The notes beneath the pieces were generated by a model. It saw nothing but the letters and a program-made list of their open reading frames with translations, did not search any database and was not told the DNA's origin. From the NCBI RefSeq assembly GCF_003790525.1, contig NZ_CP033635.1: DNA of 64,000 bases, one strand, 5' to 3'. The translations under genes were made by a program, and so were the position numbers. How positions within the stretch are numbered: position 1 is the stretch's first letter; every line of letters starts with the position of its first letter. The DNA comes from Escherichia coli (GTDB lineage Bacteria > Pseudomonadota > Gammaproteobacteria > Enterobacterales > Enterobacteriaceae). Shown here piece after piece: positions 19,121 to 22,696 of this stretch.

Positions 19121-19148
19121 CTGACGGATGCCCGTTCGCATCCGTCAG
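19121..19148. terminator. bidirectional hairpin between convergent lhr and grxD
   Basis: 10-bp stem ctgacggatg / catccgtcag with 8-nt loop between the two stop codons. Confidence 0.55.
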
Positions 19149-19162
19149 TATTGCAGGACGGA

Positions 19163-19510
19163 TTATTCAGCGTCCGGCTCTTCAGACTTGTATTTAGCGG
19201 CAGTTTCTTTGATCAACTGCTGCAGTTCGCCACGCTGATACATTTCGATCACGATATCACAACCGCCGACCAGCTCGCCGTCAACCCACAGTTGCGGGAA
19301 GGTCGGCCAGTTAGCATATTTCGGCAGTTCCGCACGAATGTCCGGATTCTGCAGGATATCAACATAGGCAAAACGTTCGCCACATGCGGCAAGCGCCTGG
19401 ACTGCCTGGGCAGAGAAACCGCAGCTCGGCAGTTTCGGTGAACCTTTCATGTACAGCAGGATCGGGTTTTCAGCAATCTGGCGTTGGATTTTTTCGATAG
19501 TGGTGCTCAT
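19163..19510 (-). CDS. grxD: monothiol glutaredoxin 4
   Basis: 115 aa ORF with CGFS active site (MSTTIEKIQRQIAENPILLYMKGSPKLPSCGFS...). Confidence 0.95.
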   Translation of the reverse strand: MSTTIEKIQRQIAENPILLYMKGSPKLPSCGFSAQAVQALAACGERFAYVDILQNPDIRAELPKYANWPTFPQLWVDGELVGGCDIVIEMYQRGELQQLIKETAAKYKSEEPDAE

Positions 19511-19844: not shown

Positions 19845-20672
19845 GTGGCGCGGATAAACCGTATTTCGATCACGCTCTGTGCTTTACTTTTTACCACCCT
19901 GCCTTTAACGCCTATGGCCCATGCTTCAAAGCAAGCCAGGGAGAGTTCTGCTACTACTCATATCACCAAAAAAGCAGATAAAAAGAAAAGCACGGCAACC
20001 ACCAAAAAGACCCAGAAAGCCAGCCAGAAAACAGCGAAAAAAGCCGCCAGTAAAAGTACGATCAAAGGCAAAACCGCTTCTTCCGTTAAAAAATCTTCCA
20101 TTACCGCTTCTAAAAACGCCAAAACTCGCAGCAAACACGCCGTCAATAAAACGGCCTCAGCCAACTTTACCGAAAAGTGTACCAAACGTAAGGGCTATAA
20201 ATCGCATTGTGTGAAAGTCAAAAATGCCGCGTCAGGAACCCTTGCCGACGCGCACAAAGCGAAGGTGCAAAAAGCCACGAAAGTGGCAATGAATAAACTG
20301 ATGCAGCAAATTGGTAAGCCATATCGTTGGGGCGGCAGCTCACCGCGTACCGGTTTTGATTGCAGCGGCCTGGTTTATTACGCTTATAAAGATTTGGTGA
20401 AAATTCGTATTCCGCGTACGGCGAATGAAATGTATCACCTGCGAGATGCAGCGCCAATCGAACGTAGTGAACTGAAAAACGGCGACCTGGTCTTTTTCCG
20501 TACTCAGGGACGCGGTACAGCCGATCATGTCGGCGTATATGTCGGCAACGGCAAATTTATTCAGTCACCGCGTACGGGTCAGGAAATTCAAATCACTTCT
20601 CTCAGTGAAGACTACTGGCAGCGCCACTATGTTGGCGCTCGCCGGGTAATGACCCCAAAAACACTTCGCTAA
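19845..20672 (+). CDS. mepH: NlpC/P60 peptidoglycan DD-endopeptidase
   Basis: ORF from GTG 19845 (275 aa): signal peptide, Lys/Thr/Ala-rich low-complexity linker, C-terminal NlpC/P60 domain (DCSGLV...H); recognised as MepH (YdhO); exact start uncertain. Confidence 0.85.
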   Translation: MARINRISITLCALLFTTLPLTPMAHASKQARESSATTHITKKADKKKSTATTKKTQKASQKTAKKAASKSTIKGKTASSVKKSSITASKNAKTRSKHAVNKTASANFTEKCTKRKGYKSHCVKVKNAASGTLADAHKAKVQKATKVAMNKLMQQIGKPYRWGGSSPRTGFDCSGLVYYAYKDLVKIRIPRTANEMYHLRDAAPIERSELKNGDLVFFRTQGRGTADHVGVYVGNGKFIQSPRTGQEIQITSLSEDYWQRHYVGARRVMTPKTLR

Positions 20673-20799
20673 AACTTTACCCTGTTGTTACGGCAACAGG
20701 GTAAGTTCATCTTTTGTCTCACCTTTTAATTTGCTACCCTATCCATACGCACAATAAGGCTATTGTACGTATGCAAATTAATAATAAAGGAGAGTAGCA

Positions 20800-21381
20800 A
20801 TGTCATTCGAATTACCTGCACTACCATATGCTAAAGATGCTCTGGCACCGCACATTTCTGCGGAAACCATCGAGTATCACTACGGCAAGCATCATCAGAC
20901 TTATGTGACTAACCTGAACAACCTGATTAAAGGTACCGCGTTTGAAGGTAAATCACTGGAAGAGATTATTCGCAGCTCTGAAGGTGGCGTATTCAACAAC
21001 GCAGCTCAGGTCTGGAACCATACTTTCTACTGGAACTGCCTGGCACCGAACGCGGGTGGCGAACCGACTGGAAAAGTCGCTGAAGCTATCGCCGCATCTT
21101 TTGGCAGCTTTGCCGATTTCAAAGCTCAGTTTACTGATGCAGCGATCAAAAACTTTGGTTCTGGCTGGACCTGGCTGGTGAAAAACAGCGATGGCAAGCT
21201 GGCTATCGTTTCAACCTCTAACGCGGGTACTCCACTGACCACCGATGCAACTCCGCTGCTGACCGTTGATGTCTGGGAACACGCTTATTACATCGACTAT
21301 CGCAATGCACGTCCTGGCTATCTGGAGCACTTCTGGGCGCTGGTGAACTGGGAATTCGTAGCGAAAAATCTCGCTGCATAA
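20800..21381 (+). CDS. sodB: Fe superoxide dismutase
   Basis: 193 aa [39 protein letters not shown]... recognised as SodB. Confidence 0.96.
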
Positions 21382-21404
21382 TAACTGATGGCAAATGCAG
21401 CATT

Positions 21405-21465
21405 GCCTGATGCGCTTCGCTTACCATGCCAACACGGATGAGTCGTTAACACCGCATCCGGCAAG
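21405..21465. repeat. REP-like palindromic units downstream of sodB
   Basis: gcctgatgcgcttcgcttaccatgcc and inverted ...accgcatccggcaag resemble the REP consensus GCCKGATGCGRCG. Confidence 0.4.
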
Positions 21466-21491
21466 ATAAATCGCACGTTGCCAGCAACTGT

Positions 21492-21524
21492 AACGCAGAA
21501 GGTTATCCTTCTGCGTTTTTGTTT
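21492..21524. terminator. intrinsic terminator after sodB, abutting the ydhP stop
   Basis: stem aacgcagaagg / ccttctgcgtt, loop ttat, then TTTTTGTTT. Confidence 0.7.
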
Positions 21525-21526
21525 AA

Positions 21527-22696
21527 TTAGCTGTTGGCAACGCAAACTGTTTCAGGTTGTTTTCTGGCTGACATAAACACCAGTAATAATGCCAGTCCCG
21601 CGACAATCGCCCCCATCACCGGCACAAAACTGTATCCCAGCCCAGCGGAAATTACCGCACCACCAGCAGCTGCTCCCAGCGCATTTCCAAGATTAAAGGC
21701 ACCAATATTGACTGATGAAGACAGACCTGGCGCTTCACTGGCGACACGCATCACGCGCATCTGTAACGGCGGTACGACCGCAAAGGTTGCAGCGCCCCAC
21801 ACCACCATGCTAATAGCTGCGCCGAACTCATTGCGGGCCAGGAACGGGATTGCCAGCATAATCACCATCAGCAGCAACAAAAAGCCTTTCAACGTGCCGT
21901 TAACTGAACGATCTGCCAGTTTGCCGCCGAGATAGTTACCGATAGAGAATCCGACACCAATCAGCACCAGCATTGCCGTAACGAACACCGGTGTTGCGTG
22001 GGTAATACTTTGCAGTACCGGAGAGATATAGGTGTAGAGGGTAAACATTGCACCAGCTCCCAGTACCGTCGTCAGCAATGCAGACAGCACCTGCGGACGC
22101 ATTAATACCGCCAGCTCTTTTTTCACTTCAGGTCGCGCCCCTGCGCCACCTTTAGGTAATGAGAAGAACAGACTTACCATTGAAATCACTCCCAGCCCCG
22201 CCGTTGCCAGAAATGACATCCGCCAGCCGATGGTTTCACCCAACCAGGTCGCCGCCGGCACGCCACCGATATTTGCCAGGGTTAACCCCATAAACATAGT
22301 GGCAACTGCGCTGGCCTGTTTATGTTTTGGCACCACGCTTGCGGCCACAACTGAACCCAAACCAAAAAATGCTCCGTGATTCAGGCTGGTCAAAATGCGT
22401 GAAAGCATCAGAGTCATATAATCCGGCGCGATGGCGGAAAGTACGTTGCCGAGCGTGAAAATCGCCATCAGGAAAATCAACGCACTGCGGCGAGCACGAT
22501 GAGAAAGTAGAAGCGTCATCAGCGGCGCGCCAACCATTACGCCAACTGCATAGGCACTGATTAACATTCCGGCAGCGGGAATCGAGACATCCACACCGCG
22601 CGCAATGACGGGCAATAAGCCCATTGGCGAGAACTCCGTTGTCCCGATACCAAACGCGCCAATCGCCAGCGCCAGCAACGGATAGTTAATTTTCAT
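21527..22696 (-). CDS. ydhP: MFS transporter
   Basis: 389 aa 12-TM-like ORF MKINYPLLALAIGAFGIGTTEFSPMGLLPVIA... recognised as YdhP. Confidence 0.9.
   Translation of the reverse strand: MKINYPLLALAIGAFGIGTTEFSPMGLLPVIARGVDVSIPAAGMLISAYAVGVMVGAPLMTLLLSHRARRSALIFLMAIFTLGNVLSAIAPDYMTLMLSRILTSLNHGAFFGLGSVVAASVVPKHKQASAVATMFMGLTLANIGGVPAATWLGETIGWRMSFLATAGLGVISMVSLFFSLPKGGAGARPEVKKELAVLMRPQVLSALLTTVLGAGAMFTLYTYISPVLQSITHATPVFVTAMLVLIGVGFSIGNYLGGKLADRSVNGTLKGFLLLLMVIMLAIPFLARNEFGAAISMVVWGAATFAVVPPLQMRVMRVASEAPGLSSSVNIGAFNLGNALGAAAGGAVISAGLGYSFVPVMGAIVAGLALLLVFMSARKQPETVCVANS

Follow-up and report, generated by a model that had tools for sequence, protein, structure and literature searches.

What the two palindromic motifs just downstream of sodB are, how they came to lie there and whether they matter for the expression of the gene are the questions raised by this locus. 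The first-pass annotation of the window (i.e., the whole 64-kb stretch of DNA analysed) described two inverted copies of a REP-like core between the sodB stop codon and the intrinsic terminator, and linked them to the stabilisation of the upstream mRNA of a gene known as a RyhB target. The motifs are located in the 145-nt spacer that separates sodB from the convergent ydhP gene, in a region (21300-21600) that is 100% identical to E. coli SMS-3-5 (NC_010498.1) and was matched in 5,425 of 5,426 complete E. coli genomes, with the contiguous match missing in five. The genes and the terminator of the region are arranged as follows:

19163-19510, minus strand: grxD (ORF list)
19845-20672, plus strand: mepH (ORF list)
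20800-21381, plus strand: sodB coding sequence, Fe superoxide dismutase (ORF list; annotated as sodB in 5,425 E. coli genomes)
21492-21526, plus strand: sodB intrinsic terminator, with an 11-bp stem AACGCAGAAGG/CCTTCTGCGTT (21492-21517), the loop TTAT and then TTTTTGTTT
21527-22696, minus strand: ydhP, MFS transporter, convergent with sodB
From 23250 onward, plus strand: purR (ORF list)

The sodB reading frame ends with TAA at 21379-21381, with another TAA in frame right behind it (21382-21384), and the terminator consists of the hairpin at 21492-21517 and its T-run, hence the motifs do stand between stop codon and terminator as had been proposed. RyhB pairs with the 5′ region of sodB, and the status of the gene as a RyhB target is therefore irrelevant to an element at its 3′ end. 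In that leader, including the start codon, a sub-threshold Rfam match to RF02775 (SodB 5′ UTR thermometer) was observed at 20725-20829 (31.4 bits against a gathering score of 98, E = 0.0013).

Identity of the palindromic units

The two head motifs were found at the positions and in the inverse orientation originally reported:

21405-21414, plus strand: head motif GCCTGATGCG, exact GCCKGATGCG
21453-21462, minus strand: head motif GCCGGATGCG, exact GCCKGATGCG, whose reverse complement reads CGCATCCGGC

GCCKGATGCG has no other exact match in the window; both lie in the sodB-ydhP spacer, inverted and within 60 nt, as compared to 0.47 matches per 64 kb expected from shuffles; two exact 10-mers were seen in 8 of 100 window shuffles. 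When one mismatch was allowed, 21 matches were found against 11.5 expected, none of the others in the window being comparably arranged. The inverted repeat reaches 12 nt with one mismatch (92% complementarity) between 21403-21414 and 21453-21464.

The window was scanned by blastn-short with y, z1 and z2 consensus sequences near-identical to the E. coli REP sequences that Durrant et al. list among their methods (2024; PMC11208160), with y off by one base. The first-pass annotation had made its reading dependent on a comparison with the REP families, and this comparison gave a Z2 match over 21405-21423 (18/19, E = 0.001) and a Y match over 21462-21435 on the minus strand (24/28, E = 0.075), while no significant match to the three consensuses was obtained elsewhere in the 64 kb. 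Extended to their full length, the units are:

21405-21433, plus strand: REP-A, decayed Z2-type REP, GCCTGATGCGCTTCGCTTACCATGCCAAC, 25/29 to the Z2 consensus GCCTGATGCGCTACGCTTATCAGGCCTAC
21435-21462, minus strand: REP-B, decayed Y-type REP, GCCGGATGCGGTGTTAACGACTCATCCG on the minus strand, 24/28 to the Y consensus

REP-A and REP-B are oppositely oriented with their tails facing each other, and abut at about 21433-21435 in the absence of any linker. Since the full units match Z2 on the plus strand and Y on the minus strand, the head motifs are the arms of two different REPs: the REP nature of the earlier description was borne out, whereas the idea of two copies of one core has to be abandoned. 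K-12 catalogues contain roughly one REP cluster per 13 kb, and with the sodB pair as the only match the 64-kb stretch looks poor in REPs. A perfect 11-bp palindrome of REP-like appearance, CTGACGGATGC-CCGTTC-GCATCCGTCAG, was also observed at 19121-19148, just downstream of grxD on the minus strand; the canonical y, z1 and z2 sequences gave just an 8-nt word there by BLAST, and REPt127 is the EcoCyc entry for grxD of K-12 according to the table in PMC10100675.

Both units share the similarity to y or z sequences that characterizes REPs, and they occupy an extragenic and transcribed region, after the sodB stop codon and before the terminator and the stop codon of the convergent ydhP. In this allele, however, the 30-40-nt imperfect palindromes that give each REP its own stem-loop have decayed, and neither unit conserves the GTAG/CTAC box 5′ of the palindrome foot: the CTAC box of REP-A has become CAAC, and CAACACGG stands in place of the GTAG box of REP-B. 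Binding and cleavage by TnpA_REP require GTAG and the stem mismatch (PMC3333891). K-12 carries 584 REPs (PMC3333891), and the decayed pair itself is single-copy per genome. Two REPs in inverse orientation constitute a BIME (PMC3333891), and the sodB pair resembles the BIME-2 class (Bachellier/Gilson, per PMC3333891) in combining inverse z2 and y units, in being extragenic and in varying in copy number between strains at this locus, but differs from it in the lack of the S linker and of a tandem array (the units abut, and there is one pair) and in the degeneracy of the units.

The orthologous spacer of MG1655 has flanks identical to those of the window on both sides, and contains GCCTGAAGCGCTACGCTTATCAGGCCTAC - GCGGATCATCGAT - GTAGGTCGGATAAGGCACTCGCCGCATCCGGC, i.e., near-canonical z2 and y units with CTAC and GTAG boxes. 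REPv128ab is the sodB entry in a table of PMC10100675, which cites EcoCyc. The RefSeq annotation of MG1655 shows no repeat feature or RNA gene in the sodB-ydhP spacer, so the catalogue name rests on that table. Given the identical flanks and the listing of REPv128ab for sodB, the element is already catalogued in K-12. In both versions a Z2-type unit comes first and an inverted Y-type unit second, and the two stand between the sodB stop codon and the same terminator. While REP128/REPv128ab of K-12 lies in a 161-nt spacer, has the 13-nt linker GCGGATCATCGAT and both boxes and folds as a pair at -34.7 kcal/mol, the window version lies in a 145-nt spacer without the linker, has lost both boxes and carries four substitutions in Z2. 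The feature is thus, very probably, a degenerate BIME of a Z2-like and a Y-like REP, orthologous to REP128/REPv128ab of K-12 and carried in the sodB 3′ UTR as a passenger with modest effect. Both this kind of element and the K-12 locus were already known, and what is found here is a decayed allele.

Origin and allelic diversity of the element

Alignment with outgroups places the pair within a longer lineage-specific segment:

21390-21491, no strand assigned: insertion of about 102 nt carrying the REP pair and its flanks (outgroup alignment)

The insert is present in E. coli, Shigella and E. albertii, the latter with an orthologous decayed pair, and is missing in E. fergusonii, Salmonella enterica, S. 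bongori, Citrobacter werkmanii, Citrobacter sp. FP75, Enterobacter cloacae and Pseudocitrobacter (the Salmonella, E. fergusonii and Shigella loci were gathered via cluster members and exact-protein look-ups). In these seven insert-free taxa the sodB stop codon is followed by the same terminator hairpin within about 6-12 nt, and REPs are likewise absent from the sodB locus of Kluyvera. As the sodB gene of E. albertii is closer to that of E. coli (92.6% nucleotide identity) than that of E. fergusonii is (88.0%), one insertion in the common ancestor of E. coli and E. albertii would be the simplest history. The core stem of the terminator, ACGCAGAAGG/CCTTCTGCGT, is invariant in eight aligned taxa from six genera, and the terminator is much older than the REP insertion.

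Some further features were observed around the insert. The pentamer AACTG, at 21383-21387 and 21485-21489, is a possible short direct repeat flanking it, and a 12-13-nt motif occurs three times, after the sodB stop codon (21382-21394, TAACTGATGGCAA), as an inverted copy at the right edge of the insert (21478-21489, TTGCCAGCAACT) and over the ydhP stop codon (21528-21540, TAGCTGTTGGCAA); these repeats may be traces of the insertion mechanism or due to chance. Salmonella (S. bongori, S. enterica) has no ydhP at this place, sodB being followed by the small cydH/ynhF gene and purR, and in S. bongori ATGAGC takes the place of the T-run after the conserved terminator stem.

The forms of the locus were defined by aligning sampled strains and were counted by junction-specific searches in 5,426 E. 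coli genomes, about 880 of which hold variants outside the seeds of the allele queries:

(a) Decayed short allele, 145-nt spacer: at least 2,823 genomes, 226 with the exact window variant; the majority form, sampled in the window, H10, AR0086, CUVET20 and Shigella dysenteriae
(b) Short allele of the same length with intact Z2: 13 genomes, e.g., strain 2017.17.01CC
(c) Long allele, 234-nt spacer with four REPs (Z2 plus, Y minus, decayed Z1 plus, decayed Y minus): 1,350 genomes, e.g., H2, AW1.7 and K99B
(d) K-12 type, 161 nt with two REPs: 356 genomes, many of them laboratory K-12 derivatives, e.g., MG1655

At least four structural alleles thus occur at the sodB-ydhP locus among the 5,426 E. coli genomes, in addition to forms disrupted by IS621. 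In the K-12 type, the Y unit is a hybrid that combines REPs two and four of the long form, with the junction inside CCGCATCCG, whereas the Y unit of the window corresponds to the fourth REP of the long allele. The reference spacer of MG1655 is a minority recombinant, and the decayed short form is the majority. Differences in BIME number between strains at one locus are a described property of the family (PMC3333891), and the four-REP allele would be an "atypical" BIME because it contains a decayed z1-like unit.

In strain K99B (NZ_CM135133.1) a copy of IS621 (L003:140-1410) interrupts the orthologous intact Z2 REP exactly at ATCAGGCCT|AC, where the REP reads ...TTATCAGGCCT|AC... IS621, an element of the IS110 family with a bridge-RNA recombinase, has ATCAGGCCTAC as its natural target in REPs (PMC11208160), and the insertion point in K99B is this natural target. 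Taking ATCAGGCCTAC or ATCGGGCCTAC with a CT core as the sequence to be recognized, positions 21423-21433 of the window, ACCATGCCAAC, fall short of it with just 8 of 11 positions matched, and the window allele would therefore no longer be a good target for IS621.

Among six short alleles of E. coli and Shigella, 13 of the 62 nt of the REP pair are variable (π = 0.083), as compared to π = 0.012-0.025 in the flanks and no variable site in the terminator. This diversity fits relaxed constraint or gene conversion between REPs, and argues against a conserved functional RNA. Since its insertion the REP pair has been a fast-evolving, recombination-prone repeat.

RNA structure and possible functions

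Along with the GTAG/CTAC box and the IS621 target, the units of the window have lost most of the stability of their own hairpins. The predicted folding energy of isolated REP-A is -2.9 kcal/mol, where the Z2 consensus gives -13.2 and the K-12 orthologue -12.8; for isolated REP-B it is -7.5 kcal/mol, where the Y consensus gives -21.3 and the K-12 orthologue -16.2. The terminator folds at -17.8 kcal/mol and also lies 9 nt past the stop codon of the convergent ydhP, while the whole sodB 3′ UTR reaches -49.7 kcal/mol (z = -4.1 against shuffles). Within it, the outer arms of the head motifs are predicted to enclose both REP remnants:

21403-21464, plus strand: predicted composite hairpin, arms TTGCCTGATGCG / CGCATCCGGCAA of 12 nt with one mismatch, -20.4 kcal/mol

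This irregular structure is predicted to be lengthened by weaker pairing out to 21386-21486, and reaches -31.0 kcal/mol when 21382-21491 is folded. The composite fold is possible in all short alleles and in E. albertii, with 95% of cells paired across the six short alleles. Its covariation term was negligible (+0.28), on a structure derived from the same six sequences, and when pairs were counted, two showed compensatory changes (E. albertii in both cases) while seven contained broken cells. Support from covariation is weak; at most, some selection for the composite structure may have acted.

At the DNA level, the pair would be an immobile fossil. At the RNA level it would be transcribed within the sodB 3′ UTR, where the two remnants most likely fold together, closed by the head arms, before the terminator. 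The most probable effect would be a modest second barrier to 3′-to-5′ exonucleases (PNPase, RNase II) that have already got past the terminator stem, and the hairpin may also, as a structured obstacle, hinder transcription that reads through from the convergent ydhP. For the stalling of terminating ribosomes, on the other hand, the pair seems badly placed. REPs that regulate translation lie less than 16 nt past the stop codon (Liang, Rudd and Deutscher 2015, as cited in PMC12306157), and the sodB element shares with them the position downstream of a stop codon. However, 23 nt separate the end of the sodB stop codon (21381) from the REP core (21405), and 21 nt separate it from the extended arm; as the core starts at the 24th nt after the stop codon, a translational effect of this kind is inapplicable and was rejected.

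The main alternative to a passenger is that the pair was selected as a stabiliser of the sodB mRNA, blocking 3′ exonucleases and raising SodB output. In other genes REPs in the 3′ UTR do lengthen mRNA half-life, and transcripts that contain REPs become more stable if ATP-dependent decay is compromised (PMC10100675; PMC12306157). With the REPs of malE-malF, osmC and yghA, described as mRNA stabilisers (PMC10100675; PMC12306157), the sodB element has in common the transcribed, GC-rich palindrome in a 3′ untranslated position, and the composite hairpin has considerable predicted stability (-20 to -31 kcal/mol) and can form in all short alleles. By analogy, stabilisation of sodB mRNA by the REP pair is plausible. 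Nevertheless, the 3′ end of the sodB transcript is already provided, downstream of the REPs, by a terminator hairpin that is strong and deeply conserved, and close relatives have sodB without any REP; the mRNA-stabilising effect is therefore probably small. The decay of the single hairpins weakens the idea further for the window allele, and selection is hard to reconcile with a pair 3-7 times more variable than its flanks, with stem-breaking substitutions in the majority allele and with the coexistence of four structural alleles. A selected stabiliser appears unlikely on these grounds. A more particular version, in which the decayed remnant is kept as one long 3′-UTR hairpin, closed by the head arms, and the very different structures that replace it in the K-12-type and four-REP alleles might give strain-specific decay of sodB mRNA, is to be considered quite unlikely; the alleles might also differ in blocking antisense read-through from ydhP.

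A role of the DNA itself, as a site for gyrase or IHF relieving positive supercoiling between sodB and ydhP, was also considered. The element stands between convergent genes, REPs are reported to bind gyrase, IHF and Pol I, and positive supercoils are believed to build up in the spacers of convergent genes (PMC1525189). The insert is, however, missing in relatives with the same gene arrangement. Strong gyrase binding goes with multi-copy BIME-2 arrays, whereas only two decayed units are present here. IHF binding, in turn, is tied to the L linker of BIME-1 (PMC3333891), and the window allele has no linker. Such a role for a linker-less BIME of two decayed units is unlikely, and as an account of why the pair is there it deserves very little credence.

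The possibility that the sodB 3′ UTR yields an Hfq-binding sRNA incorporating the REP hairpin appears highly improbable. Terminators with a long U-run, as that of sodB, are typical of sRNA 3′ ends, and some E. coli sRNAs contain REPs (PMC12306157). Yet a search of Rfam 15 (E ≤ 10) on the plus strand of 21382-21526 gave zero matches, the MG1655 annotation shows no RNA gene there, and the segment is hypervariable and lacking from sister taxa. In the literature searched, no report of an sRNA from the sodB 3′ UTR and no sodB-specific study of the REP or by Term-seq was found.

Finally, a chance palindrome, to which the weakness of the single units in the window (E = 0.001 and 0.075) and the shuffles with two exact 10-mers could point, is ruled out by the orthology with the near-canonical, box-bearing REPs of the K-12 and long alleles and retains hardly any probability, the more so given two inverted matches in one 60-nt intergenic spot, an IS621 insertion there at a REP target and the REP-REP recombination polymorphism typical of BIMEs.

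Implications of the decayed allele

Few bacterial repeats have been known for as long as REPs and BIMEs, and this pair alone is of little importance. Read as a degenerate BIME carried along in the sodB 3′ UTR, the element accounts for a 3′ UTR about 100 nt longer in E. coli than in its relatives, owing to a datable REP insertion before an ancient terminator. The majority allele of E. coli is the decayed one, without the motifs needed by TnpA_REP and IS621. The behaviour of the sodB 3′ UTR in K-12, whose allele was found in 356 of the 5,426 genomes, should be extrapolated to other strains with caution, as the structures differ. If the allele structures did modulate sodB mRNA decay from strain to strain, the sodB-ydhP locus would represent a natural allelic series for the effects of REPs on expression.
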